64,000 bases of DNA from an uncultured Erysipelotrichaceae bacterium (GTDB lineage: Bacteria > Bacillota_I > Bacilli_A > RF39 > UBA660), in NCBI GenBank assembly GCA_902800945.1, contig CADCFX010000007.1, positions 1,376 through 65,375 on the forward strand. The letters are read 5' to 3'. This document shows, piece after piece, positions 8,448 through 47,214 of this stretch (its first letter is position 1; each line of letters starts with the position of its first letter). The notes beneath the pieces were generated by a model, which was given only the letters and a program-made list of their open reading frames with translations, was not told the origin of the DNA and made no database searches. The translations under genes were made by a program, and so were the position numbers.

Positions 8448-8475
8448 TTGACAATATAATAACTTGTGTTATAAT
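8448..8475 (+). promoter_or_regulatory. Sigma-A type promoter for the gltX leader
   Basis: TTGACA (8448-8453), a 16-nt spacer, then an extended -10 TGTTATAAT (8467-8475). Confidence 0.8.
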
Positions 8476-8481
8476 TTTTGT

Positions 8482-10374: not shown

Positions 10375-10464
10375 TGCGATTAAGTTCTCGATATTTTTAT
10401 ATTTTTGTATCTATATTTTAATAAGTATGCTATACTTATAATAGTATGGAGTACTATAGGAAAG

Positions 10465-15795: not shown

Positions 15796-17315
15796 TGCGA
15801 AAATTAAATCTTAAGAATAAGGTGTTTATTGTTGTCTTTTCCCTTATTATTTTAGGAATTATTGGTTTATTAGTTTACGCAGTTAAATTGGTTGGTAATA
15901 AGGGAAAAGAAGTTTATGCTGTTACGAGTAATACTGTATTGTTTGCTAATGATTCAAATCAAATAGATACTAAGAATGGTGGAAGGATAGAAAAAAAATG
16001 GAGTGGCGATTATTACTTTTTAGCTAGTAATCAAGATACTTATAAATTAGGGAAAAGTTCTGTAGTATATGAAACTTCTAATGATACTTTGACTATATTT
16101 GGCGATAATTATCAAGTATTTAAAGATGGTAATGTTGCTAAGTTAAAAGATAGCGCCACTATAAATGATTTGTCTGTTCCATATTTTTATAAATTAGAAG
16201 ATAGAGTATATCTAATTGTAGCAGATGAAATATATAATGAGGATAAATCGATATTTGCTAATAAGTATTTGTTGATATATATTGATAAACAAGGAAATGC
16301 TTCTGTTTTAAATGATGTACTTAATATTAAAACTATTAATCCGATGATTTTATATTTTGGTAATTTTACTTTTGATATAGCCAATGAAAAATTAATTGTA
16401 GATGAAAAAAGTATTGATTTAAAAGCTATTATTGGTAGTACTAATGAATATGTGGTTCCAGAAAAAGAAGAAGATGTCTTGAACTTTGATTCTAATAAAT
16501 TAATTGAATCATATAATGAGTTGGTGAACGATTTTAATCAGTATGCTAGTAATAATAAGATTAAATCTTACGCTAATAATCAAGTGATTCAGAATAATAA
16601 TACGGTAATTAATAATAATACTACTAATAATGGTGAAACAATTATTAATAATAATGGAGGAGTAAGTAATTCGTCTTCTAATAATGCTGTACAAGCAAAG
16701 AACAAAACTAATTTGGTGAAAAGAGTTAGTCTTAGGGGTTCTATTTCTTATCCTACTTTTATTGATGTATCATATATAGTAACTGATCCTGAGAATAAAT
16801 ATCAAGCTGTGTATTTGTTGGTAACTGGGGAAATAAATGGTGAAGTTGCTACTCAAAAGATAATTCTTGATAAATATGATACAAAATATCGAATTGTTGG
16901 TTTGGCTACTAATAGTGAGTATTCTATTAGTTTGGGGTATATAGAAGTGGTAAAGGATGAAGATACTGGAGAAAAGAGTTTAGTTGATAATATTGAAGAT
17001 GTTATTAATGTTAGAACAACTAAAACAAAGTATGCATTAAAAATAGAAAAGATTTCTAATGGTTATGTATATTTTAATTATAAAATGACTTCTGATTATG
17101 CTTTTGAATCTGGTAAGATTGTTTTATATGCTGGTGGTAATATGTTAGATGAAGTACTTATTGATACTGAGGCTATAAAAAGCGAAAAAGGATTTGAAGG
17201 GCGATTAAAACTAGAACAGTCAAATTTGTATGAAATACGTGTTGAAGAAGCGGTATATAATGGAAAAAATGTTAATGATAGAATTGTTAAATCGTTTGCA
17301 ATTCCGATGCCATAA
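15795..17315 (+). CDS. N-terminally anchored surface protein (506 aa) with an Asn-rich linker and two Fn3-like modules
   Basis: The start ATG overlaps the upstream stop (TAATG) and is preceded by the RBS AAGGGGGG. TM helix VFIVVFSLIILGIIGLLVY. Asn-rich tract at about 16560-16700. C-terminal modules carry NSEYSISLGY and SNLYEIRVEE. Confidence 0.8.
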   Translation: MRKLNLKNKVFIVVFSLIILGIIGLLVYAVKLVGNKGKEVYAVTSNTVLFANDSNQIDTKNGGRIEKKWSGDYYFLASNQDTYKLGKSSVVYETSNDTLTIFGDNYQVFKDGNVAKLKDSATINDLSVPYFYKLEDRVYLIVADEIYNEDKSIFANKYLLIYIDKQGNASVLNDVLNIKTINPMILYFGNFTFDIANEKLIVDEKSIDLKAIIGSTNEYVVPEKEEDVLNFDSNKLIESYNELVNDFNQYASNNKIKSYANNQVIQNNNTVINNNTTNNGETIINNNGGVSNSSSNNAVQAKNKTNLVKRVSLRGSISYPTFIDVSYIVTDPENKYQAVYLLVTGEINGEVATQKIILDKYDTKYRIVGLATNSEYSISLGYIEVVKDEDTGEKSLVDNIEDVINVRTTKTKYALKIEKISNGYVYFNYKMTSDYAFESGKIVLYAGGNMLDEVLIDTEAIKSEKGFEGRLKLEQSNLYEIRVEEAVYNGKNVNDRIVKSFAIPMP

Positions 17316-17338: not shown

Positions 17339-17614
<276 letters not shown>

Positions 17615-17617
17615 TTT

Positions 17618-18376
17618 ATGAATGAAATATTTATAATAATTGGAGTAGTAGTAATACTGCTTTTGGTATTTACTTTATTACTATTTTATATAAGTAAAAG
17701 GGTAAATTTGTTAATAAAAAAGATTTTTGTTGATAGATTACAAGAGTTTGATTTCTTGATAGAAGATAAGGAAAAAAAGATTAATGAGTTAAATGGTGAG
17801 ATATCAAATAGAAAAGAACAAATAGAAGAATTAAAGTCTAAAACTGTAAAAAGAACGGTAGACATAGAAGATAATAATAAAGAAGTTGTATTACCGGTTT
17901 TTGCAGATTTAGAAGATGATAACGTTAAAACGATTTATAGAAAAATTAAATATGGATTTAATTATGATGTGGAAACTGCTATAAAGAAGTTGGTTAAGAG
18001 TAATCATGAAAATAATAGTAAACAGTTGTATAATGAATATAGAAAGATTAGAAGTTATTTTTCATTTAATGTTATTTATAAAATATCTACATTTCAAAGT
18101 AATGAACAGTTTGTGATAGTAAATGAATTGTTAAGTGATATTGAGAAGGAAAGAGTAAAAAATATATTAGTTAAGAAAAACTTTAATATTAATAAATTTG
18201 TTGAAAAGGTAGAGGAACTGATAATAAAGAGTAATCCAAAGATTAAAGTTTTGGTGGGGGATAAAAGTAAGTCATATAATGATATTGATGAGTATGTAGA
18301 AACTGTATATTCTGATAAAATAACAGAAGGATTTAAGATTGAATATAAGGGAGTAGTATTTGATTATAGTATATAG
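17618..18376 (+). CDS. Subunit b-like stalk protein (N-terminal TM helix, coiled coil, extra C-terminal domain)
   Basis: 252 aa. TM helix IFIIIGVVVILLLVFTLLLFYI is followed by the charged coiled coil DKEKKINELNGEISNRKEQIEELKSK. It occupies the atpF position between the c-like and alpha-like genes. The assignment rests on architecture and position only. Confidence 0.5.
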   Translation: MNEIFIIIGVVVILLLVFTLLLFYISKRVNLLIKKIFVDRLQEFDFLIEDKEKKINELNGEISNRKEQIEELKSKTVKRTVDIEDNNKEVVLPVFADLEDDNVKTIYRKIKYGFNYDVETAIKKLVKSNHENNSKQLYNEYRKIRSYFSFNVIYKISTFQSNEQFVIVNELLSDIEKERVKNILVKKNFNINKFVEKVEELIIKSNPKIKVLVGDKSKSYNDIDEYVETVYSDKITEGFKIEYKGVVFDYSI

Positions 18377-18471: not shown

Positions 18472-19878
18472 ATGCAAGATTCTTTAAGTGAAGCTATTAG
18501 TAAGAAAATTGATAGTATTGCTAATAGAAATAATATGTATCATTCTGGAAAAGTAACAAAGATTAATAATTTTATTGTTGAAGTTGTTGGTTTAGAAGAT
18601 GCATTTTTCTTCGAAAAAGTATTTGTTGGTAATGAAGAAAATGTTGGATATGTTGATAAAATTGAAGTTAATAAAGTAATTATTTCACTTGTTAAGACTA
18701 ATGGAACTATAGCAGTAGGGAATTCGGTAATAACAACTGGTGAAGTTCTCCAAGCATCTTTTTCTAAAGATTCAATGGGAATGATTATTGATTCGTTTGG
18801 TTTTGATAAGTTAACAGGAAGAAGGATTAATAATAGTATAACTATTCCAATTGAGACGAAGAAGATTGGAATTATGGAAAGAGGTACTGTTAATAGACCT
18901 TTGGAAACTGGTATAGCTGGAATAGATTTGATGTTTCCTATAGGAAAAGGACAACGACAGTTAATTATTGGTGATAAGAAGACAGGAAAAACACAGATTT
19001 GTTTAGATACAATAGTTAATCAAAAGGGAAAAAATGTTATTTGTATATATGTTGCTATAGGTAAGACCAAGAAAGAATTAAAGAGATTATATTCCAAATT
19101 GGTTTCTAAAGGGGCTCATGCTTATACGATAATAATTGCTTCATTTAATGATGACTTAGTTCCATTGATAAAGCTCACTCCGTATGTTGCTTTATCAATA
19201 GCAGAAGTATATATGCGTGAGGGAAGGGATGTTTTGGTATGTATAGACGATTTAAAGAAACATGCTGATGCATGTAGAGAAATAGCATTATTATCAGAAA
19301 AGAATACTGGACGAGATGCTTATCCTGCGGATATTTTCTATACTCATTCAAGATTGTTAGAAAAAGGATGTCAGCATAAGGATGGTGGATCAATTACTAT
19401 TTTACCAATAGTGGAGACTAAGGGTGGAGATATTACCGATTATATTTCTACTAATATTATTTCTATTACTGATGGTCAGCTTGTTTTATCTGAAAAAATG
19501 TTTAAAAAAGGTCAAAAGCCAGCGTTGAATTTTGGATTGAGTGTATCACGTTTGGGTGGTGCTGTTCAAAAAGATATGATTAAAAAGATCGGTGCAGTAG
19601 TAAAAAGAGAATTGCTTTCTTATTTGGAAACAGCGGATGTTTATCAGTTGGTTAATATAGAGTCAATGTCTTTCGAATTGCGAAAGAAACTAGAAGATGG
19701 CAAAAAAATGCTTGATCTTTTAAAACAGCCTAAGTTTACTCCCATGAGTGAGGACGTTTTGATTGATAGATTTGGCTATGTAATTGAAGATGATCATTCT
19801 GAAGTTTCAGAGAATAATAGTGATAATGGTAGTAGTGATGAGGTAGAGCTGCCTAAGCTAGCTAATAATGGTGATTAA
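18472..19878 (+). CDS. F1-ATPase alpha subunit-like protein
   Basis: P-loop IGDKKTGKT (canonical GDRQTGKT), then VICIYVAIGKT, and GLSVSRLGGAVQ, which retains the Arg-finger context. The 468 aa include an acidic C-terminal tail (DDHSEVSENNSDNGSSDEVE). Confidence 0.85.
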   Translation: MQDSLSEAISKKIDSIANRNNMYHSGKVTKINNFIVEVVGLEDAFFFEKVFVGNEENVGYVDKIEVNKVIISLVKTNGTIAVGNSVITTGEVLQASFSKDSMGMIIDSFGFDKLTGRRINNSITIPIETKKIGIMERGTVNRPLETGIAGIDLMFPIGKGQRQLIIGDKKTGKTQICLDTIVNQKGKNVICIYVAIGKTKKELKRLYSKLVSKGAHAYTIIIASFNDDLVPLIKLTPYVALSIAEVYMREGRDVLVCIDDLKKHADACREIALLSEKNTGRDAYPADIFYTHSRLLEKGCQHKDGGSITILPIVETKGGDITDYISTNIISITDGQLVLSEKMFKKGQKPALNFGLSVSRLGGAVQKDMIKKIGAVVKRELLSYLETADVYQLVNIESMSFELRKKLEDGKKMLDLLKQPKFTPMSEDVLIDRFGYVIEDDHSEVSENNSDNGSSDEVELPKLANNGD

Positions 19879-19880
19879 CT

Positions 19881-22307
<2,427 letters not shown>

Positions 22308-22309
22308 TA

Positions 22310-22804
22310 ATGATTAGTTATTTAAGGTTAACATTTTCTATTTTTTGTTATATAAGTATTGTGGCATTAATATTATTTGTTATTGGATTTATTCTTACAA
22401 GTAAATATAAGAATAAGTACCGAGGGTTTTATGCTGTTTTTTTGGGAATAACCAAAAGAGAAATATTTATTCATGTTACTAATTTTCTTAATTGCTTATT
22501 ATTATTTTATTTTTTGTTTAATATTAATGCATTTTATAGATATGGTTTGATTATGATTATACTTATTAATCTGTTATCATGTACATTTTCTTTTAATTTT
22601 CATATAATTATAATGGATGTTGTATATACTTGTATTTCTTCCTTACTATTTATGATTTTAAGGTTGGTAAATAATTATTTGGTAGATGTAGTATTTGATT
22701 ATAAAGTAAATATATTGAGAGTAGTTTTTATGATACTTGTTGCTATGTATATAGTATATATAACAGTAAGTATGAAATCTTATAAGGGATTAAGGAGGAC
22801 ATAA
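22310..22804 (+). CDS. Small polytopic membrane protein (about 5 TM), unknown family
   Basis: 164 aa, starting 2 nt after the epsilon-like stop. Carries an Arg in the hydrophobic context FMILRLVNNYL. No confident family assignment. Confidence 0.6.
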   Translation: MISYLRLTFSIFCYISIVALILFVIGFILTSKYKNKYRGFYAVFLGITKREIFIHVTNFLNCLLLFYFLFNINAFYRYGLIMIILINLLSCTFSFNFHIIIMDVVYTCISSLLFMILRLVNNYLVDVVFDYKVNILRVVFMILVAMYIVYITVSMKSYKGLRRT

Positions 22805-23577
22805 TGGATAATAGTTATCAAGAAAATATTGAGAAAACTAAAAAAAAGAACAAAAGAGTTAAAGCTTTAGTCGTAGGTATTGGATCTATAGTTGCTTTAG
22901 CTTGTATAATAGTATGTATAATAGTTGTTAAAAAGTATTATTCAAATATTAATACTGTTGAATTTGATAATTATGAATTATATCAATATTTTGCGGGTAA
23001 AAAAGTTGAATATACCGGTAAAGTAACTATTCAAAGGGAAAATGAAATCACAAGTATAAAGAATAAAGATGAGGAAATGGAATTAGATATTATACCGATT
23101 TATTTTCAGAAGATTGATAATCAGGTGATGTTTCCTGTAAATATGTCTATTGTTTATTTAAATAATAAAACGCAAGCTTATAAGATTAATTATTTTACTA
23201 AATTAGAAAATGAAGTTGTAAATGAAGAGGAAAGCACTTTTGTTTATTATCAAGATAAAAAAATGTATTTAGGTGATTCTATTATTTATGACGGGAATGA
23301 TTTATACTTATTTCCTTATTCAACTACTATAATAGTTGATGATGTTAAGTATGAATTAGCTCCATTATCATATGTTATTGTTGATTTTAATGATACAATA
23401 GAGATATATGATAAAAGAAATGATAAGTATATAATTATTGATGATTTTAAGAATAATGTAATGGCTTATTATAAAAAATATGTTATTAATCTTAGTACGG
23501 ATATGATTATGTATGATAATGGTAATCGTATATTGAGAAAGAATATTGATAAATTAGAATTGTTTAATGGTAATTAA
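22804..23577 (+). CDS. N-terminally anchored extracytoplasmic protein (257 aa), unknown family
   Basis: The start ATG overlaps the upstream stop (TAATG). TM helix ALVVGIGSIVALACIIVCIIVV is followed by a beta-rich soluble domain. Confidence 0.7.
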   Translation: MDNSYQENIEKTKKKNKRVKALVVGIGSIVALACIIVCIIVVKKYYSNINTVEFDNYELYQYFAGKKVEYTGKVTIQRENEITSIKNKDEEMELDIIPIYFQKIDNQVMFPVNMSIVYLNNKTQAYKINYFTKLENEVVNEEESTFVYYQDKKMYLGDSIIYDGNDLYLFPYSTTIIVDDVKYELAPLSYVIVDFNDTIEIYDKRNDKYIIIDDFKNNVMAYYKKYVINLSTDMIMYDNGNRILRKNIDKLELFNGN

Positions 23578-23604: not shown

Positions 23605-26600
23605 ATGAAGAAGAAGATTGCAAAGTTGATAAAAAAGTTAAAGATGAATAAATTTAAGGATTCTAAACTAGTTAAAGTATTACCTGTTTTTATCGTGGCA
23701 ATTTTTATATTTGTTATATTCCTTTTTAATTATTTATTTAATACTTATAGTTTTGTTATGGTGGTTGAAGAAAAAGGGTATTTTCTTAGCTCTGATTCTG
23801 CTCCTGAAAGCCTTAGAAGTAATAATTATGATAAAGCGGAAGATAAACTAAAGGTTGCGGAAATAGAGCAGAATGAATATATTTATAAAACCCCTTTAAA
23901 TCATTATGTAGATAATTCTAGGAGTTCAACAATTAATATGTCTTATCCGTTGTTTATTAACGATGGATTGGCAATAATAAATTATAATGATAATACTAAT
24001 TTGGTTAGTACTGATTTGAAAAGATTAACGGGTCTAAATAATGTGGTTTTTTCATATGGAAGCGTTTATGATCCAGTTACTTATGTAAGTCTTGATGGTG
24101 ATAAATATATTCTTTTGAATTATGAAAATGGTATATATTTGAATTTATATGATTTAGATATTAAATCTGAAGCTCAAGAAGTTACTATTCCTATTAATAG
24201 TTTTATTTACTTTTCTAAAGATAAAATAAACTATTATGAAAGAGGAGAAAATACGTTTGTTAAAAATAGTATTGATGTGGATTTTAATACCACATTAAGG
24301 TTTTACTATGCTAGTAATAATGAAGAATATATTTATGGGTATGAAGACTTTTTGAAAGTAATAGGTATATCTTTTAAGACGATTGAGGAGATACCGGAAA
24401 AGCAAATCATTACTCCTGAAGAGGTTATAGAAGAAGTAGATGAAGAAGATGTTACACCAGTGCCTCCTGCTATTATGGAAGAGGTTCAGAAGCCTGGATT
24501 TACCTATGTAAAGCCATCTGTAGCTGTACAAAGATTTACTCCTAATGTTTATTCTATGTCGTCAAATCTGATTATTAAAGATCCGTCTGGGGTTATTATT
24601 AAGCCACCTACTTTTACATTAGTATCTGGTGGAAAAACATTTGCTAGAAGAGCTTTTTATGCTAGTGGTAATATTTTAATATCAGGATTATATGCAAGTA
24701 CGGAGTATAAAATTGTTGGTCAATATACATATTTAGATGAGGATTTAAAGACTAAAAAAATAGTTACTTTCTACTCAGATACTTTAACAACTTTAGGACT
24801 AGAGGAATTAGAACCTATTGAAATAGAATTTGAAAATGGAGAGATTTATTCAAATAAAATTGAGCTGGCTAAAATGATATTAACTAGTTCTTTAGATAGT
24901 GAAGTGTTAAGAGGGGTTAAGAATTTTGCTTTAACTATAGGAGATACTAATTATTTCTTTAGTAAATCTGATTTGAACAAGTTGATAAATGGTAAAGAAA
25001 TAAATAATATTTCTACACCAGAAAGTTTGGAATCTGATAAAGAATTTGACTTTGAGATTACTTTTTATGATGGAAAGAATAACAAGTTGGAAGCTAGAAA
25101 TAATAAGGGGCATACTCGTACGTCTAGGAGACCACCTGCGGTTGTATTAAAGGTTGTAGAAAATGAAGTTGATTATGTTGGAATAAGTGTTAATTTAAAG
25201 AATGATGATAATATTAAAATAGGTAATTATCATTATGTTGTTACTAATTCTTCGGGGGTTACAGTATTAAGTGATACTATTAGTGATGAACGATTTAAGT
25301 TATATAATTTGGATCCAAATCAAGTGTTTAATATCAATGTATATGGTGATATTGATTTGAACGATGGTAAAGGTGAAAGAAAAGATTATGTATTAGGTAG
25401 TATGGAATTTACTTCTTTACCAATTACTAGTTTAGGTTTTTTGAATTTTGATTTTGAATCTAATGAATTAACTAAGGATTCAGTAACTCTTAATTATAGA
25501 ATTAATTCTTCTAAAACTGATGATAGATTATTAAAATTGTTAAAACAATTACATATTAAGCTATTTAGAGAAGATAATAATGAGTTGGTTACAGAGTATT
25601 CTTTATCTTCTCAGGAAATAACAAGAATTAAGAATTATGAAGAGCTGACTTTATTATTTAAGAATTTGAATTCAAATACTTCTTACTATATTGAGATAGA
25701 TTCTGTTGTACAACAGGGGGAAACAACTTATGATTTAGATTGTTTGCATAGTTTAAAACCATTTACTACGCGAAAAAAACCGGCGGAAGTAGTTATTGCT
25801 AATAGTTTTGTAAGTAATAACATGATTGATTTAGATGTTAAAATAAATGATCCCGATAATTCGGTATTAACTAAAGAAGTTAGGTTAGAATTAAGGGATT
25901 TAAATGATACATTGGTAGACGCTAGAATTATTAAAACTAATACTGATTTTGAAAGAATTACTTATAATAATCTTAAAGTTAATACTAATTATGTTTTAAA
26001 GTTTATTGCTGATGAATATAATGAGACAAATAGTAATTCTACATTTGTATCTAAATATGTGTTGAAGAGTATTAGCAAATATACAGAGGAAAGTATAAGT
26101 GGAAAAATAGAATTAACTTCTTCTTTGCGTGTAGCTAATGGGGAAAACTTAGTAGATATGTATTCCGAAACAAAATGGATTCAAACTATTAATACTTATA
26201 CTATACCTAAAACTATTGATAGTGAAGGTGATATGCATATATATTCTAAAAATGGTTCATCTTCATATATGTATGATTTAAGTGATTATCATGGTGAGAT
26301 TGTTACTGCAACTTTCAAAATAAAAGCTATTAATCCTTTGAGTGCTGGTCACAGATTGTTTTTTGAAAACTATTTAGGTAATACAACTAGTTTGAATTAT
26401 GGGATTGAACTTACGAATATTTCAACCGATAAATGGACTACTTATACTTATACTTTTAGGGTTGGAAGTTATAAAAGCGGAAATAACTTTGTAAATAATA
26501 CTAGTACATATTATGGTAAATATAGAACTGATTTTATTGGATTTTGGTTTACTAATGGTTCAAAGTTTACGGCTGAATATGAAGTTAGAGATTTTATGAT

Positions 26601-29600
26601 TTATAAATCAAGAGAAAGAAAAGAAGTTAATCTGGGAAATGCTTCTATTTTACCTGGAACTTATAATAATAATGGAACAATAAATGTTACTGGTTCTTAT
26701 TATGATAGAAGGGCAAGAGTAAGTGAACCGTTGATTTTAGAGGGGAATAGAGCTTATACATTTGATTTTGCTGATTCTGATAATGACTATTCTGCTTATA
26801 TTTATTTTACTGATCTTAGTAATAAGTATAAATCAGCATATGGTTGGTTTGAATCTGGTAGAACTGTTTATGTACCTAGTGGATCTAAAACTTGGTTGGT
26901 ATTTAGAAATTATAGTGGTAATGCCAATATTGATCCGAGTAAGGTAAATCTAAAGATTACTGAGTATGTAGATTTGCCAAGTAAATCTTATGAGACGTTT
27001 AGTTATGATTTTGTAACTAATACACGGGTTAATATTAAGGATTTAAAAGATGAAATAAGTAATAATACATATTATATTCAAGTAAAAGATGAAAACGGAG
27101 AGAAATTATATAGTAATGAGTATGTTGAATTAATAAATACAGATGTTATTAAAGATGCAATAAAATCTGTCGATTTGGAAGAGAATAAAAAATATACTAT
27201 TTGTTTAGCTATTTCTATTAGAGATAGGGAATATGTTCTTGATAGTTTTGACATATCTACTGATAATGAGGTTAAGGGGATTGCAAATACTAATGATTGG
27301 GTATATATGCAACCGAATGGTAATTATATAGTATTAAATGATTTGGATTTTTATGAATTTACAGCTCAAACACTAGGTTGGGGATATAAATATTTCTATG
27401 GAACAATAGATTTTCAAGGATATAGTGCTAATGTTTATTCGCTTTCAGATAGGAATAATTATACGAGATTAGGAAGAATAGAAAAAAGTGGCATTTTAAA
27501 GAATATGGTTTTAAATGTTCATTTGAACAATACAATAGTTAATACGAGTATAAGAGGATTTGTTTCTTCTAATTATGGTACGATAGAGAATGTAGAAATA
27601 AATGTTTATGATGAAAGAGAAACTAAATTTAATGATACTTATTTTAATACTTTAGTTGATGTTAATCATGTATCTGGAGTGATTCAAAACTTTGTTATGA
27701 AGCTAAAAACGAAAGTTAATTTATATTCAGAGGTGGGATTATTAACTAGGTATAATTATGGAACTGTAAGAAATGGTTATGTGTATGGAGAAAATGCAAT
27801 TATTTCTAATGAAAATAGTGGGGCGTCTGCTAGAACTATTGGGTTAATACAAAGATATGGTGGTGTTAAGTCACTTGTTGATCATATCTATGTTATCAAC
27901 AACTATGAGTTCCCAAGCGATTTTGCTTATGATATTACGGGGTTAATTGCTTATGAAACATATGGTACATTACGTAATTCTTATACTGTTGGTAATGCTA
28001 ATAATATTAATCAGGCAGTAGGTCCTGTGGTAGGCTATGTAAGAGCAACTGCTAATTATAGTAATATTCATTATTTAAGTGATTATATCTATACAACCAA
28101 TAATCAAAATAAGATTACGGCTTTAAATCTTAATGATGTGTCTTTTCAAAAAAGTGTACTTGGAGATGGATTTAATGTTGATGAAATGGTTAAGCTAGGG
28201 TATTATCCTCAAGTTAGATATACTTATAATAAGATGCCTAAGCAAGAATTTAATGAGTTACCATATTATTCTGAAACAAGTGTTGTAGATATTATTACGA
28301 TGGAAGTTGTAGAACAAACAAATTCAACTGCAATGGTAGATGTTGTTGTTGATAATCCAAATGGAGATCAAATAGATAATGTAGCTATTTCAGATGTTAG
28401 GACTAGAGTAGTATCGCAAAATTTTGAAGATGGGAAAACCTATTTAAAATTAGAAGTATATGATCCAGATATTTATGTATCTAAATATGCTATTAGAAAT
28501 ATAACCTGTAGAAGTTATAATGGTTTGCTTTCATCTAAGGCATATGCTGCTGGAGAAAAGTATCTATATGTAGATTTCTATCAAGAGATTAATTCGGTTG
28601 AAGATTGGATGCAGATTAATAGAAATCTAAATCAGAATTTTGCAATTATGAAGGATTTGAATTTCATAGAGTATACAGGATATACATTGGGTAATTTTTC
28701 TGGAAAAATAGATGGAAATAATCATGTTTTAAGAAATATTAGTCTTTATGGAAATGTATCAGGATTGTTTAATCAAATGAATGGAACTTTACAGAATATT
28801 AGTTTTGAAAATATAACTAAGAGTTCTGATTCTACTTATAGCGGTTTGATAGGTTATTCAAACCAATATGCTAATTTTAATAATGTTCATGTTAAGAATA
28901 TTACGATAATTGTTCCACCAACTAGGACTGCAGACACCTTGTATGTTGGGGGACTTGTTGGATATTTATATTATTCTAAGGTTACGAATTCAACTATAAC
29001 TGATGTAACTATTACCTCTACTCCTGAGATTACGGATGTTAATGCGGGAGGTATGGCCGGTTATAGTGTGGCTGGTGGATATAGTAATGTTTTGGTACAG
29101 AATGCTAATATTAGTATTAAGAATGCTAAAAGTGTTAGTGGTGTAGGAGGAATTGTAGGTAGAGATACTAGTAGTATTTCTAGTATTGCTAATGCTTATT
29201 CTACTGGAACAATAGTTTCAAATGGGTATCGTACTGGTGGTATAATTGGAGCGACAAGTGGATATGTTGAGAACAGTTATTCAACTGTAAATATTCAGAG
29301 TGATATAGATAGTGTTGGTGGAATAGCAGGCTATTCAGGTACTCCGGCCGATATAATGAACAATTTATATCTTGGAAATATGTATTCTAAGATAGAAGGT
29401 GCTGTATTTGGACGTATAATTAGTAATAATTATTTGGAAGATGAAAGTAATAACTATGCTTATGATAATTCTTTAATAAATGGTATGAAAACTACTGAAT
29501 TTGATGAGGAATATGAAAATAATATATATTATGGTGTACTAACTCCGATTAATAAGGGGGAATCATTTATTAGTTATGAAGAGTTATTAGATGTTGATAC

Positions 29601-32600
29601 TTATACTTCTGGTGATAAGTTACGATTGGGAGATTCTTTTGATTATTCTGAGGTTAGCCAAGGTACACTTCCAAAACTATATTATTTGGATTCGACAGAG
29701 TTATTACCTAATCAGTTAGATACTAAAATTAAGCAACAGATGTTTAGAGTTACTAACTTAGTTATTGATAAGCATGTTGATCATGCTAACTTGGTGTTGT
29801 ATTTAGATAATCCAGATGAATATTTAATAACGGATATAGTATTAGATGATACTAATGTTCAAATTAGTAATATTACTAATCATGAGGGAACAACTATTAT
29901 TAATTTCACAGCAACTCCTAAGAAATATTATGATTCTTATATGATTAGTGAAATTAAGTATCGTGTAGATATTAATGCTAGCGAAGAAAGGGAATTTAAG
30001 AATATTAGAATTCCGATGACTTTCTATAAAAACTTATCTACTTTTGATGATTGGCAAGCTGTAAGTACAAGTGATGCTGAAAACTATGTTTTAGTTAATG
30101 ATATTGATTTTACGGGATTAGACTTTAAAAAAGGTGTAGTATTTAATCGTTTAGAGACACCATCTAATGATGAAAAATACACTTTAAGGGGATTTAATTA
30201 TTCTAATAATACTAGTGGTAATAATAAAGCAATTATTAATAAAATAGTTACTTCTTTAAGAAATATTAATTTTGAAGATATTGAAATAAGAAATACACAA
30301 GGATCAAGTAATAATTATATAAATTTAATTAATTATAACTATGGTTCTATTGATAATGTTAGTTTTAAGGATATTGAAATATATGCGCCTAGCAAGAGTA
30401 GAGTAGCTTTAATTGGACAGGGGTTAACTAATCATATAAATAATATTTCGCTAGATAATATTAAAATAACTGGTAAATCGTATGTAGCAGGTTTATTGGC
30501 TTATTATGACAATGGTGTTAATAATCATATTTCTAATATAGAGGGTAAAAATTTAACTATTTATGCTTCTAATGGATATGCTGGTGGAATATTTTCAACA
30601 TTTAGTACGGCTCATGGAGTAGATGCTAAAACTAAAACAAATATTGAGGGTAGTCCAGACTTAGATGATTCGGTAAACTTGGTTAGAAATATAAAGGTAA
30701 GTGATTCAACTATAACTATGCCTTCTGGTAATTATGCTGGTGGAATAGGAGCGTATGCTGGAGCTAATGATTCAGTGGTTGATAATGTAACAGTAAATGG
30801 AAATAAATATGTTGGTGGAGCGTTTGGATATGCTTATGAGTCTTATATGTATAATATTACTGTTAAGAACTCCAACGTATCAGGAATTGATAGCTATATT
30901 GGCGGTTTGGCAGGTCAAAGTAGATATTTGTATGATTGTTTGGTTGATAATACTAATGTTAAAGGTACTAGCACCTCAACAGATGGAGTAGCGGGATTTG
31001 TTGGATATATTAATGGATATGCACTTAGAAGAAGTGTTGTTCAAAATAGCACAGTAGTTAACAGCGGTAATAATACCGGTTGTTTAGTTGGAAGTATGTC
31101 GGGTGGTACGTTACATACTATGTCTTGTCATAATAGTACAATTACAGGACAATCAAAAACTGGAGGTATGGCTGGTAATGTTAATACTGGTACTATATCA
31201 ACTTCAAAAGTTACTAATAGTGTTATTCATTCAGCTGGTAATTATGCTGGTGGAGTGGCCGGATATTTTTATAATATTAATGATCAAGCTACGTATCGTG
31301 AAGGTGTGTTTAGAAATCTATTGGTAGCAGGGGTAGATATTTCTAGTAGGAGTTATGCCGGAGGTATTCTTGGAGGAAAGAATACCGAAATATATAAAAA
31401 GAATAATGATTATGAATTGTATTTTGAAGGAGTTGTTTCTACTGAAGATAATATTACGGCTGGAGTAGGAGCCGGAGATGATTCTAATAAGGAAATTCTT
31501 AATCTAGGACATGCTGGTTTCTATAATAGATCAGTTATAAATGGGGAAGAAATATCTAATAATATAGCTCCTTTAGAAAATGATAATCTTATTAAACATA
31601 TTAATTCGGGATTTGTTAATGAAACTACTGGTGAGCCTGGAGATAATCTTAATTATCCTAATGCGGGATATACTGATATGATAAAATTAGAACAGGGTAA
31701 AAACTATTATTTTAGAGCGGAAAATGTTAACAATAATAGTGGTGATATATTTAGAGTTAGATTATATGATGCTAATAGAAAATATATAAGTAATGCTGCT
31801 TGGAATTCAAATACTTGGTATTACTTTAGTCACTATACTAATTTTGGTAATGTTGATGATTATTCTTTTACTGTTAATCATGATTGTTATGTTAGATTTG
31901 TATTCTTTTATACAGCTTCAGCTTCTTTATATGAGATAAAGACAGCGTATAACATGGTACCAGAAAGTAAGCTTTTAAATTCTTCTGATATTAGAGATAA
32001 ACTAACATGGGTTAGATATGCACCAGGTGGAGCAGATTTATATCAAAAAACGCAATTATGGTTTGATTCTGATTATTGGGATACTACTCCTTTAAATGGT
32101 GGTGTTGAAAACTTAGAAGTTCCTGATTTATCTGGTCATGGTAAAAAGGGAATTGCTAATGTAAGTATGATGCATAAAGATAAAGGTTTCTTCTTCGATG
32201 GGGTGGATGATAATATTCAAATACCAGATTATACGCCAAGTAGTAACATAACTGTTTCAACAACTTTTACATCTTATGCAAGTAGAAGTTGGCAATTACT
32301 ATTTAATTATGGAACGGCATCAACGAATTATTTTGGGGTATTTATAAGTGGAAAGGCTTTATATGTAGTTATTAATGGATCTACTTATAATAGCGGTTAT
32401 TATGTACCTTTGTATAAAGAAGTTAATATGACTGCTACTTATGATTCTAATAAATATTTGAAAATATATGCAGATGGTAATTTGGTATATACTAATAATA
32501 ATGTTAATAAAACCATCGGTTCTTCAGTTGATGCTAAGACTTATGTGGGGCATGATATTCATTATAGTTCAACTTCTTATAAATTTTTGGGATATATCAA

Positions 32601-34245
32601 AGATTTAGCTGTATTTAATAGGGCGTTATCAGAAGAAGAGGTATTAGCAAATTATAGATCATCTGGTATTACTAATAATAGTGGATTAACTATTAAGCAG
32701 AAGTATACTGATTCTTCTTATGGAAATCCTGGTTATTATCCGATTCATAAATGGTCTACGCCTTCTTTCCAAGTATATAATCAAGCAAATGTTGAGCTTC
32801 CTACAGAAAGATCTACAGTTGGTTATTTAGCTGCCTCTCATGGTAGTAGTTATAGTCCTTTATATAATGGAGCACTAGAAGGTAATTATCACATATATTC
32901 TTCTGGAATAAATACTATTAATTTAGAATTAGATAAAATATCATCAGATTTGAGATTATCGTATAAAATTGGAGATAAAGAGGAGAATGATTTGCCTGTT
33001 ACGAAGAGAGTTTATTCTTTTGGCTATGATTATAATAGTGATATAAAAATAGTATTGGAAAATACAAGTGAAACAAAAGAAATCGTTTTGACTAAAGAGG
33101 ATTTGGCTAAATCAATAACTTTAAAGGATGGTAAGTATTATCATATTGAGAATTCTAAGTTGTATGAGAATAATAAAAAGATAGTTGATAATATTGTTCA
33201 TGTTTATAATGACTTGGCTTTAGTTAGTGATGGTAGTATTTATAATCTTAAAACAAATGAGTATCAAGAAGCCCTTGGAGATATTGGTTTATTAGATAGA
33301 GAGATTCCTCTATATCATACTAATATAAGTGATAAAATAGTTGATTCTTATTATAATTATAGTGTTTTAACTGATTTAGATGGTAATATAAAATATAGAG
33401 ATGGGCAGATAATATATAAAGATAAAAATGTATATTTATATAGTTCTAATAGTGGTATTAAAAATGACTCTTTGATAGTTAATAACTACAATAATAGTGA
33501 ATATCAAATAGTTTTAGGTGATAATTTACAAGTATATTCATATAAAACGAAGTTAAATTCTGATAATTATTTCATGAATAGTAATATATCAGAGATTAGT
33601 GGAGATTTTGATAATGATGATCCAATTATAATGATTAAGTATGATAATGGAGGAGTTATTGCTTTTGATTATCATAATGGTGATAAGCTATTTGAATATG
33701 GTAGTAAGCCAAAAATATCTTTGACTAAGTATTTTGGCTTAGCTGTTACTGATAATAATACGGCGAAGAATAATAAGTCTTATGAATCTAGTAATGATTT
33801 AATTAAAACTTTAGATAGTGTTGATAATCAAGAGGTAATCGGTTTGTTGAATAGAAATAAAACGGATAAAGTTATCAATACGGAAAAGGTAGAGGATACT
33901 AGTGAGGATATTCCTTCAGATGTTGATGAGCAATTAGATGCAGTTATTGAAAGCAATGATGTTAAGAATGACTATATTATCAAGTATGATAAGGATACCA
34001 ATTCTTATGATGTATATAATATTAATGATGTTTTAAATGTTGATGCAGATAATGTAGTATCTGTAGATGAGCAGATTGTATCTAATAATTATTTGTATAA
34101 TTATTTCCGTAGTAATAATAAGAGTGATGAAGTAATAAAAAATAACAGATTATTAATATATGCAAGCATTATTATAGTTATTGTATTAAATCTAGTTTTC
34201 TTTGCTATAAAAGGAAGAATGAAGGAGGAAAAGAATGAAAAATAA
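23605..34245 (+). CDS. Giant (3546 aa) surface protein with TM helices at both termini
   Basis: Uninterrupted 10.6-kb ORF with the RBS AAAGGA. N-terminal TM helix VLPVFIVAIFIFVIFLFNYLF. The C-terminal TM helix LLIYASIIIVIVLNLVFFAI has a charged tail (KGRMKEEKNEK) and no LPXTG. The interior holds Fn3-like modules (TEYKIVGQY, TSYYIEIDS, TNYVLKFIA, KKYTICLAI), jelly-roll-like modules, three GLUG-type modules and a LamG-like domain. Confidence 0.85.
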   Translation: MKKKIAKLIKKLKMNKFKDSKLVKVLPVFIVAIFIFVIFLFNYLFNTYSFVMVVEEKGYFLSSDSAPESLRSNNYDKAEDKLKVAEIEQNEYIYKTPLNHYVDNSRSSTINMSYPLFINDGLAIINYNDNTNLVSTDLKRLTGLNNVVFSYGSVYDPVTYVSLDGDKYILLNYENGIYLNLYDLDIKSEAQEVTIPINSFIYFSKDKINYYERGENTFVKNSIDVDFNTTLRFYYASNNEEYIYGYEDFLKVIGISFKTIEEIPEKQIITPEEVIEEVDEEDVTPVPPAIMEEVQKPGFTYVKPSVAVQRFTPNVYSMSSNLIIKDPSGVIIKPPTFTLVSGGKTFARRAFYASGNILISGLYASTEYKIVGQYTYLDEDLKTKKIVTFYSDTLTTLGLEELEPIEIEFENGEIYSNKIELAKMILTSSLDSEVLRGVKNFALTIGDTNYFFSKSDLNKLINGKEINNISTPESLESDKEFDFEITFYDGKNNKLEARNNKGHTRTSRRPPAVVLKVVENEVDYVGISVNLKNDDNIKIGNYHYVVTNSSGVTVLSDTISDERFKLYNLDPNQVFNINVYGDIDLNDGKGERKDYVLGSMEFTSLPITSLGFLNFDFESNELTKDSVTLNYRINSSKTDDRLLKLLKQLHIKLFREDNNELVTEYSLSSQEITRIKNYEELTLLFKNLNSNTSYYIEIDSVVQQGETTYDLDCLHSLKPFTTRKKPAEVVIANSFVSNNMIDLDVKINDPDNSVLTKEVRLELRDLNDTLVDARIIKTNTDFERITYNNLKVNTNYVLKFIADEYNETNSNSTFVSKYVLKSISKYTEESISGKIELTSSLRVANGENLVDMYSETKWIQTINTYTIPKTIDSEGDMHIYSKNGSSSYMYDLSDYHGEIVTATFKIKAINPLSAGHRLFFENYLGNTTSLNYGIELTNISTDKWTTYTYTFRVGSYKSGNNFVNNTSTYYGKYRTDFIGFWFTNGSKFTAEYEVRDFMIYKSRERKEVNLGNASILPGTYNNNGTINVTGSYYDRRARVSEPLILEGNRAYTFDFADSDNDYSAYIYFTDLSNKYKSAYGWFESGRTVYVPSGSKTWLVFRNYSGNANIDPSKVNLKITEYVDLPSKSYETFSYDFVTNTRVNIKDLKDEISNNTYYIQVKDENGEKLYSNEYVELINTDVIKDAIKSVDLEENKKYTICLAISIRDREYVLDSFDISTDNEVKGIANTNDWVYMQPNGNYIVLNDLDFYEFTAQTLGWGYKYFYGTIDFQGYSANVYSLSDRNNYTRLGRIEKSGILKNMVLNVHLNNTIVNTSIRGFVSSNYGTIENVEINVYDERETKFNDTYFNTLVDVNHVSGVIQNFVMKLKTKVNLYSEVGLLTRYNYGTVRNGYVYGENAIISNENSGASARTIGLIQRYGGVKSLVDHIYVINNYEFPSDFAYDITGLIAYETYGTLRNSYTVGNANNINQAVGPVVGYVRATANYSNIHYLSDYIYTTNNQNKITALNLNDVSFQKSVLGDGFNVDEMVKLGYYPQVRYTYNKMPKQEFNELPYYSETSVVDIITMEVVEQTNSTAMVDVVVDNPNGDQIDNVAISDVRTRVVSQNFEDGKTYLKLEVYDPDIYVSKYAIRNITCRSYNGLLSSKAYAAGEKYLYVDFYQEINSVEDWMQINRNLNQNFAIMKDLNFIEYTGYTLGNFSGKIDGNNHVLRNISLYGNVSGLFNQMNGTLQNISFENITKSSDSTYSGLIGYSNQYANFNNVHVKNITIIVPPTRTADTLYVGGLVGYLYYSKVTNSTITDVTITSTPEITDVNAGGMAGYSVAGGYSNVLVQNANISIKNAKSVSGVGGIVGRDTSSISSIANAYSTGTIVSNGYRTGGIIGATSGYVENSYSTVNIQSDIDSVGGIAGYSGTPADIMNNLYLGNMYSKIEGAVFGRIISNNYLEDESNNYAYDNSLINGMKTTEFDEEYENNIYYGVLTPINKGESFISYEELLDVDTYTSGDKLRLGDSFDYSEVSQGTLPKLYYLDSTELLPNQLDTKIKQQMFRVTNLVIDKHVDHANLVLYLDNPDEYLITDIVLDDTNVQISNITNHEGTTIINFTATPKKYYDSYMISEIKYRVDINASEEREFKNIRIPMTFYKNLSTFDDWQAVSTSDAENYVLVNDIDFTGLDFKKGVVFNRLETPSNDEKYTLRGFNYSNNTSGNNKAIINKIVTSLRNINFEDIEIRNTQGSSNNYINLINYNYGSIDNVSFKDIEIYAPSKSRVALIGQGLTNHINNISLDNIKITGKSYVAGLLAYYDNGVNNHISNIEGKNLTIYASNGYAGGIFSTFSTAHGVDAKTKTNIEGSPDLDDSVNLVRNIKVSDSTITMPSGNYAGGIGAYAGANDSVVDNVTVNGNKYVGGAFGYAYESYMYNITVKNSNVSGIDSYIGGLAGQSRYLYDCLVDNTNVKGTSTSTDGVAGFVGYINGYALRRSVVQNSTVVNSGNNTGCLVGSMSGGTLHTMSCHNSTITGQSKTGGMAGNVNTGTISTSKVTNSVIHSAGNYAGGVAGYFYNINDQATYREGVFRNLLVAGVDISSRSYAGGILGGKNTEIYKKNNDYELYFEGVVSTEDNITAGVGAGDDSNKEILNLGHAGFYNRSVINGEEISNNIAPLENDNLIKHINSGFVNETTGEPGDNLNYPNAGYTDMIKLEQGKNYYFRAENVNNNSGDIFRVRLYDANRKYISNAAWNSNTWYYFSHYTNFGNVDDYSFTVNHDCYVRFVFFYTASASLYEIKTAYNMVPESKLLNSSDIRDKLTWVRYAPGGADLYQKTQLWFDSDYWDTTPLNGGVENLEVPDLSGHGKKGIANVSMMHKDKGFFFDGVDDNIQIPDYTPSSNITVSTTFTSYASRSWQLLFNYGTASTNYFGVFISGKALYVVINGSTYNSGYYVPLYKEVNMTATYDSNKYLKIYADGNLVYTNNNVNKTIGSSVDAKTYVGHDIHYSSTSYKFLGYIKDLAVFNRALSEEEVLANYRSSGITNNSGLTIKQKYTDSSYGNPGYYPIHKWSTPSFQVYNQANVELPTERSTVGYLAASHGSSYSPLYNGALEGNYHIYSSGINTINLELDKISSDLRLSYKIGDKEENDLPVTKRVYSFGYDYNSDIKIVLENTSETKEIVLTKEDLAKSITLKDGKYYHIENSKLYENNKKIVDNIVHVYNDLALVSDGSIYNLKTNEYQEALGDIGLLDREIPLYHTNISDKIVDSYYNYSVLTDLDGNIKYRDGQIIYKDKNVYLYSSNSGIKNDSLIVNNYNNSEYQIVLGDNLQVYSYKTKLNSDNYFMNSNISEISGDFDNDDPIIMIKYDNGGVIAFDYHNGDKLFEYGSKPKISLTKYFGLAVTDNNTAKNNKSYESSNDLIKTLDSVDNQEVIGLLNRNKTDKVINTEKVEDTSEDIPSDVDEQLDAVIESNDVKNDYIIKYDKDTNSYDVYNINDVLNVDADNVVSVDEQIVSNNYLYNYFRSNNKSDEVIKNNRLLIYASIIIVIVLNLVFFAIKGRMKEEKNEK
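27280..31540 (+). repeat. Three GLUG-motif (putative beta-helix) modules inside the giant CDS
   Basis: Each module opens with a D/E-D-W ... N-Y/F-x-L/I-x-x-D-L/I-D/N-F header, at nt 27280, 28579 and 30034. This is followed by iterated h-G-G-h-h-G repeats, such as YVGGLVGYL, NAGGMAGYS, VSGVGGIVG, YRTGGIIGA, SVGGIAGYS, YAGGIFSTF, YAGGIGAYA, YVGGAFGYA, YIGGLAGQS, KTGGMAGNV, YAGGVAGYF and YAGGILGGK. Confidence 0.6.
32119..32670 (+). other. LamG / concanavalin-A-like lectin domain (Laminin_G_3-like) inside the giant CDS
   Basis: VPDLSGHGKKG...FFFDGVDDNIQIP...ITVSTTF...WQLLFNYG...LYVVINGS...MTATYDS.KYLKIYADGNLV...YVGHD...FLGYIKDLAVFNRALSEEEVLANY matches the usual Laminin_G_3 pattern. Confidence 0.65.
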
Positions 34246-34729
34246 AAACGTGTTGATAGTTGGTATGGTTGCTCTAATCGTTTTTGTATTAGGTTGTTTA
34301 TTGTTATTTAATAAAAATAGCAATAAAACAAAATTCGATTTGGATTTAGTTCAAAAAGAGTTTATGAAAGAATTCAAAGAATATGATGTTAGAGAATTTG
34401 ACCAATATGATATATCAATGTATTTTGGATTAGACTTTAATGAAATTCCTTCTTCCTTGTTCATCTCAGATTTTTCTGAAGATCCTGATGAGCCTAAGCC
34501 ATTTGCACCAAAAGTATTAATTATAGTAATTAATACTCAAGATGCTGAAGACTATTATGATAGTTTATTAGGTTTTGTAGATTTAAACAAAAATAATTTA
34601 GAGGATAAGAAGTTAGCTAAAAAATATGAAAAAGCCATATTAAAAAAAGGTAAAAACTATGTTTATTTATTATTAGGTGATAATCCTAAAGATATGGAAA
34701 AAAAGTTGTTAGAGTTAGCTAAGAAATAG
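34235..34729 (+). CDS. Small anchored protein, DUF4358-like
   Basis: 164 aa. Overlaps the giant gene by 11 nt and has a strong RBS AAGGAGGA. An N-terminal TM or lipoprotein-like helix is followed by a pattern reminiscent of DUF4358 (ISMYFGLD...KVLIIVINTQDAED...KGKNYVYLLLG). The family call is tentative. Confidence 0.6.
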   Translation: MKNKNVLIVGMVALIVFVLGCLLLFNKNSNKTKFDLDLVQKEFMKEFKEYDVREFDQYDISMYFGLDFNEIPSSLFISDFSEDPDEPKPFAPKVLIIVINTQDAEDYYDSLLGFVDLNKNNLEDKKLAKKYEKAILKKGKNYVYLLLGDNPKDMEKKLLELAKK

Positions 34730-34734
34730 ATGAT

Positions 34735-34770
34735 AAAACTGTCAACTAAAAAAGGTTGACAGTTTTATAT
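34735..34770 (+). terminator. Rho-independent terminator closing the 10.4-34.7 kb block
   Basis: 12-bp stem aaaactgtcaac (34735-34746) with gttgacagtttt (34755-34766), and an 8-nt loop. Confidence 0.75.
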
Positions 34771-34784
34771 TAATCTAATATAAT
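34756..34784 (+). promoter_or_regulatory. Sigma-A type promoter for rpsP
   Basis: TTGACA (34756-34761), a 17-nt spacer, then TATAAT (34779-34784). The -35 box lies in the descending arm of the upstream terminator. Confidence 0.7.
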
Positions 34785-39173: not shown

Positions 39174-39243
39174 AGATGCTAAAAATAGTATCTTTTTTTT
39201 CAACTTTAAATATTATATAATTATTAATATAGGAGGTCTTATA

Positions 39244-39786
39244 ATGGGGAAAAAAGTAATAGTTAATGAAGAAGATGAGAATTCTAATGGTCTTATGATT
39301 TTATTCTTTATAATAATTGCGATAGTAATTGGTAGTTTATCCTTCATAGCGGGAATTGTTTATACTAGTTATTTGGATGGAAAAGATGATGGGGCTTGTG
39401 AAGATGTTGTACCAATAGAAAAGATTGTTGATGAAAAGACAATTAATGATTATGTGGTTACAGATGAGAATGTTATAAAGATTTTGAATGATAAAGTGGA
39501 AGATATAGATTTTTCACAATCTGTGTCGAAAGAAAAATATTTATATAATTATTTAGAAGATGATAAATATTATTATGTTTTAATATCTTATGGAAGTTTT
39601 GATGTGGATGGAGCTAAAAAAATAGTATATACTGATTTGGAAAAGAAGAGTGTTTATAAAGAGTATGATAGTAAAGAATCATTTGTTATAGATGAAAATA
39701 ATTATAATGATTTTAGTAAATATAGAATTACTTTTATTAAAGATGGTAATGATTGTATTTTTAAGGGGGTAGAAAGAATAGAGTAA
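39244..39786 (+). CDS. Anchored protein, paralog 1 of a tandem family
   Basis: Start moved from 39112 to ATG 39244 (RBS TAGGAGGT). Has a TM helix and the C-terminal signature NNYNDFSKYRITFIKDGNDCIFKGVERIE. Confidence 0.7.
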   Translation: MGKKVIVNEEDENSNGLMILFFIIIAIVIGSLSFIAGIVYTSYLDGKDDGACEDVVPIEKIVDEKTINDYVVTDENVIKILNDKVEDIDFSQSVSKEKYLYNYLEDDKYYYVLISYGSFDVDGAKKIVYTDLEKKSVYKEYDSKESFVIDENNYNDFSKYRITFIKDGNDCIFKGVERIE

Positions 39787-39787
39787 T

Positions 39788-40633: not shown

Positions 40634-40634
40634 G

Positions 40635-47213: not shown

Positions 47214-47214
47214 T

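Follow-up and report, generated by a model that had tools for sequence, protein, structure and literature searches.

Why would a bacterium encode a surface protein of 3546 amino acids (aa) in the same operon as the subunits of an F1-like ATPase? The question is raised by a stretch of 64,000 nucleotides (nt), hereafter the window, from an uncultured Erysipelotrichaceae bacterium (contig CADCFX010000007.1, positions 1,376 to 65,375 of the forward strand). An earlier description made from its letters alone, the sequence-only reading, viewed this giant protein as an extracellular loop tethered to the membrane at both ends, a topology that would suit force transmission from a membrane motor. The analysis reported here suggests that, within a conserved cell-surface machine linked to an ATPase, the giant is the largest of the surface components, a reading to which a probability of about 0.55 can be given. 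It is favoured because the operon is tight and the cluster syntenic, the c-like subunit lacks the ion-binding carboxylate, the motifs of the alpha- and beta-like subunits are intact and no a or delta subunit was found. It is also favoured because four surface proteins share an N-terminal module, the C-terminal anchor of the giant is conserved and mycoplasmas offer a precedent.

The giant is a real protein. Its open reading frame (ORF) runs from ATG to TAA on the + strand (23605-34245) and this very product is found in at least seven independent public assemblies; since a 10.6-kb frame at 28% G+C recurs in independent assemblies, it is neither a chance frame nor an assembly artefact. The gene is the 11th, and last large, member of a run of 12 + strand genes that spans 10405-34729 with gaps of -16 to +96 nt. 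These genes are as follows:

10405..15795, + strand: upstream giant (1796 aa) with a single N-terminal transmembrane (TM) helix at aa 27-52 and a large ectodomain; weak fn3 match.
15795..17315, + strand: 506-aa N-anchored protein with an N-terminal TM helix; no Pfam or NCBIfam match; syntenic in 56 loci.
17363..17614, + strand: c-subunit-like hairpin (83 aa); PF00137 match, no ion-binding carboxylate.
17618..18376, + strand: b-like stalk candidate (252 aa); TM helix at aa 1-33, followed by a long helix and a conserved C-terminal domain.
18472..19878, + strand: alpha-like subunit (468 aa); PF00006, E 1e-69.
19881..20693, + strand: gamma-like subunit (270 aa); PF00231, E 1e-24.
20696..22054, + strand: beta-like catalytic subunit (452 aa); PF00006, E 3.5e-68.
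22038..22307, + strand: tentative epsilon-like small subunit (89 aa, beta-sandwich only); in the atpC position in 78 loci.
22310..22804, + strand: small polytopic protein (164 aa, 4-5 TM helices), standing where the a subunit is expected.
22804..23577, + strand: 257-aa N-anchored protein, a short paralog of the N-terminal domain of the giant.
23605..34245, + strand: the 3546-aa giant.
34235..34729, + strand: 164-aa N-anchored protein with an N-terminal TM helix; its start overlaps the stop of the giant; no Pfam or NCBIfam match.

The subunit families were judged by the equivalog cutoffs of NCBIfam, together with Pfam. The beta-like subunit reaches 459.8 bits with TIGR01039 (atpD), below the cutoff of 462.85; it aligns from residue 2 of this profile and its best PDB matches are F1 beta subunits. 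The other scores are also below their cutoffs: 418.8 bits for the alpha-like subunit (554 for atpA), which covers positions 8-432 of the 507 of the profile, 55 bits for gamma (317) and 40.7 bits for c (71). Both large subunits have their catalytic motifs intact: beta carries GAGVGKT, GERSREG and EELSDED, and alpha carries GDKKTGKT at aa 167 as well as the arginine finger SVSR at aa 357.

The best PDB match of the c-like hairpin is the c subunit of the Na+ F-ATPase of Acetobacterium woodii (4bem), whose binding Glu pairs with a Ser of the window protein. In all of the approximately 70 orthologs aligned, no acidic residue is found in TM1 or TM2, the position of the carboxylate being occupied by Ser, Ala, Thr, Val or Leu. 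Three reference c sequences were included in this alignment, and the comparison with 4bem agrees independently. The cytoplasmic loop GRNPE(T/V)K is conserved in the same orthologs; in canonical enzymes, a loop of this type contacts gamma and epsilon. Among the operon proteins, no Pfam or NCBIfam match to an a subunit (ATP-synt_A) or a delta subunit (OSCP) was obtained. From these data, we infer that the ATPase hydrolyses ATP but can neither translocate ions nor make ATP.

A multi-TM ORF of 165-197 aa follows the epsilon-like gene in 16/16 inspected loci. The window member of this group is poorly conserved in sequence, without any invariant Arg or other charge among orthologs; its LRLVNN sequence was considered as the LRLFGN motif of an a subunit and rejected, as the Arg is not conserved among orthologs. 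The 252-aa candidate stalk occupies the position of atpF, carries basic residues after its TM helix and is conserved in 66 loci. When it was modelled by AlphaFold2 from the single sequence, only residues 1-75 were predicted with confidence, as an uninterrupted helix, and sequence searches of Pfam and the PDB with its profile retrieved neither b nor delta. Public gene calls start this gene 30 codons later (222 instead of 252 aa; 7013-7681 in its counterpart in locus L001), which would remove an N-terminal TM helix kept in 17/17 aligned orthologs; the public start is probably wrong. For the 89-aa epsilon-like protein, a weak match to ATP-synt_DE_N was obtained in only 2/17 orthologs (E 0.096), and its profile has no PDB match.

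The distribution of the cluster was assessed by scanning one genome per species with the beta-like protein, which returned 285 related stretches; the best 80 of them, with a beta identity of 60-91%, were examined as loci by BLAST of the window proteins against the locus ORFs. Most of these 80 loci keep the same gene order: giant-1, 506-aa protein, c, b-like, alpha, gamma, beta, epsilon-like, polytopic protein, 257-aa protein, giant-2. A homolog of the downstream giant is found 3' of the ATPase in 52 of the 65 loci that extend at least 3.5 kb 3' of beta, the rest comprising nine loci with a variant gene order and no giant and four other loci without giant. Upstream, a homolog of giant-1 lies 5' of the ATPase in 45/53 loci. 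Compared with the window proteins, beta has a median identity of 64% and the surface proteins one of about 30%; individual homologs of the giant go down to 23%.

The variant order (giant-1, 506-aa protein, 257-aa protein, c, b-like, alpha, beta, epsilon-like, polytopic protein, gamma), with no downstream giant, was observed in L066, L067, L068, L072, L075, L080-L082 and L084-L086. Among three of these loci that were inspected, a soluble protein of about 615-627 aa follows the cluster in L066 and L072 but not in L086. In the locus L087 (1-23582, long-read), three frameshifted paralogs of the giant stand in tandem, with KilA-N and AAA_14/DUF4143 genes between them; this array may correspond to a copy-number expansion or variation of the surface protein.

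The hosts are mainly metagenome-assembled genomes (MAGs) from the gut or other anaerobes labelled Tenericutes, Bacilli or Erysipelotrichaceae, to which Mycoplasma sp. CAG:956, Clostridium sp. CAG:914, Lachnospiraceae and Peptococcaceae UBA5356 must be added. One host is cultured, Chakrabartyella piscis BP5G (L074; complete genome NZ_CP092441.1, cluster at about 646-667 kb). Two MAGs harbour two copies of the cluster each (L062/L083 in JAHABX01 and L054/L071 in JAWXVA01), although contamination of the bins is possible. The full-text literature yielded no description of the cluster outside mycoplasmas, its coverage being incomplete and this being no proof of novelty. The gene cluster thus seems to be both widely conserved and, apparently, undescribed.

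Comparison of profiles by hhalign relates the surface proteins to one another. The region aa 90-202 of the giant matches the 257-aa protein (probability 88.6%). The latter is in turn related to the 506-aa protein (81%) and to the 1796-aa giant (83%), and the 506-aa protein matches the first 500 or so residues of the 1796-aa giant (98%). These matches show a membrane-proximal domain common to both giants and to the 257- and 506-aa proteins, so that two pairs, each made of a giant and a short paralog, flank the ATPase. The AlphaFold2 model of the 257-aa protein (24 sequences; mean predicted local distance difference test, pLDDT, of 84.5) shows a helix (residues 3-50) leading straight into an all-beta domain, for which Foldseek found no fold match in PDB or BFVD (best E about 0.03, TM-score <0.2). 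The profile of this protein recovers 596 clusters at 50% identity among 1.84 billion representative proteins. All 25 homologs returned with source names are described as no more than "hypothetical protein", and the seven clusters checked are nameless.

The features of the giant that bear on its topology are:

23677..23739, + strand: N-terminal hydrophobic core (aa 25-45), signal anchor or signal peptide.
28939..29016, + strand: GLUG motif (aa 1779-1804), Pfam PF07581.
32197..32643, + strand: Laminin_G_3/concanavalin-like lectin domain (LamG; aa 2865-3013), Pfam PF13385.
34150..34242, + strand: C-terminal TM helix (aa 3516-3535) and basic tail KGRMKEEKNEK, from the hydrophobicity scan and orthologs.

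The sequence-only reading had proposed an extracytoplasmic body with Fn3-like, jelly-roll-like, GLUG and LamG modules and a Tyr/Asn-rich C-terminal region, a list that is confirmed in part. The LamG domain (E 1.3e-10 on the whole protein, 3.9e-12 on a piece) was recovered, as was GLUG, with one motif above threshold (35.2 bits on a 400-aa piece) and a second one below it in a piecewise scan; Fn3/Ig-like modules gave only a weak Pfam signal. LamG and GLUG are domains of extracytoplasmic type. Their presence, and an N-terminal tail that fits the positive-inside rule, make it very likely that the body of the giant lies outside the cytoplasm, as had been proposed. The Gly-rich central region that contains GLUG (aa about 1130-2650) is the part that aligns best among distant orthologs. 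A PDB sequence search with the giant gave no match; BLAST of the protein against itself revealed no internal repeats and, against the upstream giant, no direct similarity, the two being related at the profile level only. When the C-terminal 507 aa and the N-terminal 800 aa of the giant were used as queries, no more than one and seven homologs, respectively, were recovered, low-complexity words having filled the candidate list, and an alignment-based metagenome scan returned a single locus.

A Kyte-Doolittle scan (19-aa window, threshold 1.6) detects exactly two hydrophobic stretches in the giant, one at each terminus. The C-terminal one, L3516-I3535 (nt 34150-34209), is followed by KGRMKEEKNEK and the stop codon. 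A C-terminal helix with a basic tail is present in 9/9 readable ends, the window protein included. The others include L031, L043, L033, two copies from L087, L089 and L090, and mostly share 23-37% identity with the window protein. The ortholog ends have a common layout in which a conserved Y(D/N)xxTxxY(E/D)(V/I)Y hairpin is followed by some 45 linker residues, then by a helix about 20 residues long and by the basic tail. No LPXTG-like motif lies near the C-terminus of the giant, the last match being at aa 910; the sorting-signal models of NCBIfam do not match its last 100 aa at E<=1, and no sorting motif is visible in the eight orthologous C-termini. On this point the earlier description holds, and the helix with its tail is a conserved membrane anchor rather than a sortase or exosortase signal.

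The N-terminal end is more complex. The signal anchor that had been proposed there corresponds to a hydrophobic core, V25-F45, preceded by a 24-aa tail containing 11 Lys. A hydrophobic segment is present at this place in 55/55 orthologs of the giant (median uncharged run of 18 aa), and a conserved (D/E)xxG(Y/F) motif is found about 8-12 aa after it. The clostridial giants have a short MKK N-terminal region, a hydrophobic region and an AXA site (..SAFA|TLDEDG in L079, ..IVQA|EEAF in L074, ..SFAAA|VDD in L052). In the same clostridial genomes, the 257- and 506-aa paralogs carry long basic tails and cores of 20-23 aa without any AXA-type site; having no other anchor, these small proteins must be signal anchors if they are attached to the cell. 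It is these signal anchors that the N-terminus of the window giant resembles, with its Lys-rich tail, its 21-aa core and its lack of AXA site. In the window lineage, the giant is therefore somewhat more likely than not to be tethered at both ends, while double tethering does not appear to be a property conserved in the giant family. The loop imagined in the sequence-only reading is thus retained for its C-terminal anchor, conserved among orthologs, and would be lineage-dependent for its N-terminal one.

The operon itself brings unexpected support to the membrane motor evoked in the sequence-only reading, a candidate motor being encoded immediately upstream of the giant. Combined, these data allow the following model to be drawn. 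ATP hydrolysis would drive the rotation, or a conformational cycle, of a gamma-epsilon-c-ring assembly against the b-like stalk. Without an ion path, the surface proteins would receive this work through their membrane-proximal modules. In the window lineage, where the N-terminal helix would remain uncleaved, the ectodomain (3460 aa, including the LamG domain and the Gly-rich region with GLUG) would form a loop held at both ends; in lineages where this helix is cleaved, the N-terminal domain could dock on the membrane complex, giving a similar loop. The machine would thereby perform mechanical work on the outside of the cell, in the form of movement, tension, or capture and release of a ligand, the giant being the distal, fast-evolving element that contacts the ligand.

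Several observations weigh against this model. What would tie the giant to the ATPase is synteny only. The 252-aa protein is a candidate b-like stalk, and the 89-aa protein a tentative epsilon, by position and architecture only. The giant is missing from about 20% of the clusters (L026, L036, L037, L044 and the loci with the variant order) and fragmented in L027; its absence from some clusters implies that it is not a core part. The tandem giants of L087 have no ATPase gene within 10 kb upstream. The N-terminal helix of the clostridial orthologs looks like a cleavable Sec signal peptide. Lastly, both TM helices of the giant show little sequence conservation, which suggests plain anchors rather than specific force-transmitting helices.

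Some of these observations would be explained if the giant were an ordinary adhesin with a cleaved Sec signal peptide and its C-terminal helix as sole anchor, sharing an operon with the ATPase without mechanical coupling. The classical MKK, hydrophobic region and AXA succession of the clostridial orthologs, the universal conservation of the C-terminal anchor, the adhesin-type nature of LamG and GLUG, and the clusters without giant or giants without ATPase all agree with it. Moreover, giants anchored in the membrane by their C-terminus without LPXTG do exist in Gram-positive bacteria, as exemplified by Ebh of Staphylococcus aureus; such proteins likewise have several thousand residues, an N-terminal export signal, and a C-terminal TM helix with a positive tail and no sortase motif. 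However, no sequence similarity between Ebh-type giants and the window giant was found in the PDB search, and we know of no linkage of the former to an ATPase operon nor of an N-terminal module that they have in common with small N-anchored partners. In addition, Bacilli and Clostridia alike keep the giant next to the ATPase despite giant identities that fall to 23%, the N-terminal domain of the giant is homologous to the membrane-proximal domain of three N-anchored partners of the operon, and the N-terminus of the window protein itself has a tail with 11 Lys, a 21-aa core and no AXA site. Such an uncoupled adhesin is unlikely.

Less probable still, and clearly doubtful, is the possibility that the ATPase is a motor for export, assembly or quality control and the giants its substrates, in analogy with the F1-related FliH/FliI/FliJ of flagellar type III export. 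The co-encoding of an ion-uncoupled F-type ATPase with very large exported proteins would fit, and F1 relatives are established in protein export (PMC11864180). Nevertheless, the giants bear ordinary Sec-type N-terminal signals, the cluster encodes no translocon-like channel (its only polytopic protein has 4-5 poorly conserved helices), and an alpha/beta hetero-hexamer with a c-ring is a rotary enzyme and not a hexameric unfoldase.

A slim chance can be given to a device of host interaction or immune evasion resembling MIB-MIP, in which the giant would capture a host ligand, for instance secretory immunoglobulin A or glycans of mucin, whose release or processing would be driven by the ATPase. 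Such a device would not be an independent mechanism, but a functional sub-case of the surface machine. The hosts are gut-associated, as judged from the sources of the MAGs, the giant carries a lectin-like LamG domain and GLUG, tandem serpin genes are located 13 kb away and a precedent exists (PMC12994834). Against it, neither giant contains an HExxH motif, no protease domain was detected by Pfam in the proteins of the cluster, and the scores with the alpha and beta families of the mycoplasma system are below cutoff. Finally, a divergent housekeeping F1Fo ATP synthase with the giants as unrelated neighbours is very improbable: the order c-b-alpha-gamma-beta-epsilon mirrors atpEFAGDC and beta lies only 3 bits below the atpD cutoff, but the lack of the ion-binding carboxylate of c in every ortholog and the failure to find a and delta essentially exclude it, gamma, c and alpha are far below their cutoffs, the whole cluster is conserved as a unit including its uncharacterised membrane proteins, and its presence in two copies in some MAGs is unlike a housekeeping ATP synthase.

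How does the ATPase-linked surface machine compare with known systems? In mycoplasmas, the Type 2 F1-like ATPase (G1-ATPase) belongs to the gliding machinery together with Gli349, Gli521 and Gli123 (PMC11864180, PMC7052211), and the Type 3 enzyme (F1-like X0 ATPase) is required for antibody cleavage by MIB-MIP (PMC3369863, PMC12994834). In both, F1 paralogs power surface proteins by a transmission route that is unknown (PMC11864180, PMC7052211, PMC3369863, PMC12994834). According to the published view, such F1-like ATPases have no known equivalent outside mycoplasmas.

As in Type 2, the cluster of the window has paralogs of F1 alpha, beta and gamma that would be used for something other than ion coupling, paired with giant surface proteins (1100-4700 aa) that have single TM helices at their termini as anchors, and its surface parts evolve much faster than its motor. 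In Type 2, Gli349 is anchored N-terminally, and Gli521 C-terminally, its first domain starting at aa 44. However, the cluster retains a c subunit and a membrane-anchored candidate for a b-like stalk, its beta (452 aa) has no counterpart of the N-terminal extension of about 30 kDa found in Type 2, and its accessory proteins match no Pfam or NCBIfam family. The ATPase and the giants are encoded by one operon, whereas they are encoded at separate loci in Mycoplasma mobile. The scores with glide_MMOB1660 and glide_MMOB1670 are far below cutoff (367 bits against 600 and 385 against 850). The hosts are not Mycoplasma, and some of them, among which Lachnospiraceae, Peptococcaceae and C. piscis, should possess a cell wall.

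Like the window cluster, Type 3 associates an F1-like set of alpha, beta, gamma and epsilon with membrane proteins devoid of charged TM residues; its ATPase genes are co-transcribed with those of N-anchored surface proteins, and its ATPase is needed for the surface function. Its gene order (12-TM protein, protein 2, gamma, epsilon, protein 5, alpha, beta, without c or b homolog) differs from that of the window. Furthermore, the Type 3 alpha lacks the N-terminal helix whereas the alignment of the window alpha starts at profile position 8, neither MIB or MIP homologs nor protease motifs were detected in the window cluster, and MSC_0618/MSC_0619 stay below cutoff (412 bits against 570 for beta, 298.6 against 520 for alpha). 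Taken as a whole, the system most likely works like those of Types 2 and 3. It nevertheless belongs to neither family, because the cutoffs of their hidden Markov models are not reached, the gene order and the accessory proteins differ, and a c subunit and a stalk candidate are kept.

Other F-type enzymes were also compared. In the PDB, the closest relative of the c subunit, including its C-terminal NPF motif, is that of the Na+ F1Fo enzyme of A. woodii (4bem), and the gene order c-b-alpha-gamma-beta-epsilon and the catalytic motifs are those of canonical Na+ F1Fo enzymes. By contrast with the canonical enzymes, the epsilon of the window is reduced to about 85 aa, the last 75 or so residues of the alpha profile are unmatched, c has lost the ion-binding Glu, a and delta were not found, and beta, alpha, gamma and c are below the equivalog cutoffs. 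Its c subunit suggests that the ATPase descends from a clostridial F1Fo enzyme of the Na+ type. The N-ATPases (TIGR03305/TIGR03324) offer another parallel, being encoded in various bacteria by a second, divergent F-type operon that coexists with the canonical type. They keep ion-binding c subunits and an a subunit, and we know of no giants associated with them; the scores with the alt_F1F0 models are far below cutoff (405.8/752, 342.9/750 and 32/282 bits). It is conceivable, as a tentative proposal somewhat short of even odds, that Clostridia and gut Bacilli harbour a previously unrecognised class of ATP-driven surface machine, in which a rotary motor that has lost its coupling to ions, but not its c-ring and stalk, would act mechanically on membrane-tethered giants through ATP-driven rotation, to serve motility, adhesion with release, or the processing of ligands. 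Such a class would be either an independent parallel to mycoplasma Types 2 and 3 or an intermediate form towards both.

The operon is embedded in chromosomal DNA (G+C content about 28%) among housekeeping genes (RNase R, mnmA, a T-box-regulated gltX and rpsP). The rpsP promoter (34756-34784), a perfect one of the sigma-70 type, lies only 3' of the last gene of the operon. An inverted repeat with a 14-bp stem (34733-34768), located between this last gene and rpsP, overlaps the -35 box of rpsP and may be a terminator or an operator. On the other side of the operon, a T-box leader (8480-8668; Rfam RF00230, 112.7 bits) precedes the glutamyl-tRNA synthetase gene; it is itself preceded by a perfect promoter (TTGACA-16-TATAAT, 8448-8475) and ends with a terminator-like hairpin (8651-8680). 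The start of the gltX ORF called mechanically (GTG at 8641) falls inside this leader and is therefore probably wrong.

Further along the window, two tandem serpin genes (47710-50179) encode proteins of 393 and 431 aa (Pfam Serpin, E 5e-77 and 3e-66), a notable pair for a small, low-G+C genome that is probably gut-associated. The intervals 39112-41471 and 45118-47640 contain consecutive ORFs including products of 224, 281, 278, 225 and 380 aa, some without significant Pfam match. Between 54000 and 60200, the GC skew drops from about 0.4 to about 0.08; this segment carries minus-strand genes, including one for a TrwB/TraG-like coupling-protein ATPase (56183-58051), beside a tRNA-Gly(CCC) (60098-60171), and may be the remnant of an integrated mobile element.

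If the ATPase-linked surface machine is what this cluster encodes, F1-like ATPase surface machinery would extend beyond mycoplasmas to a large family equipped with a c-ring and a candidate stalk. All of the best 80 of the 285 related stretches found in species-representative genomes carry the cluster. It would also provide another, independent system in which to study how the force of an F1 motor reaches surface proteins on the far side of the membrane, and C. piscis BP5G, cultured and fully sequenced, makes the system tractable. For gut MAGs, the "ATP synthase subunit" labels attached to genes of the cluster mislead the reconstruction of energy metabolism, while for the evolution of these motors the cluster retains informative ancestral parts.

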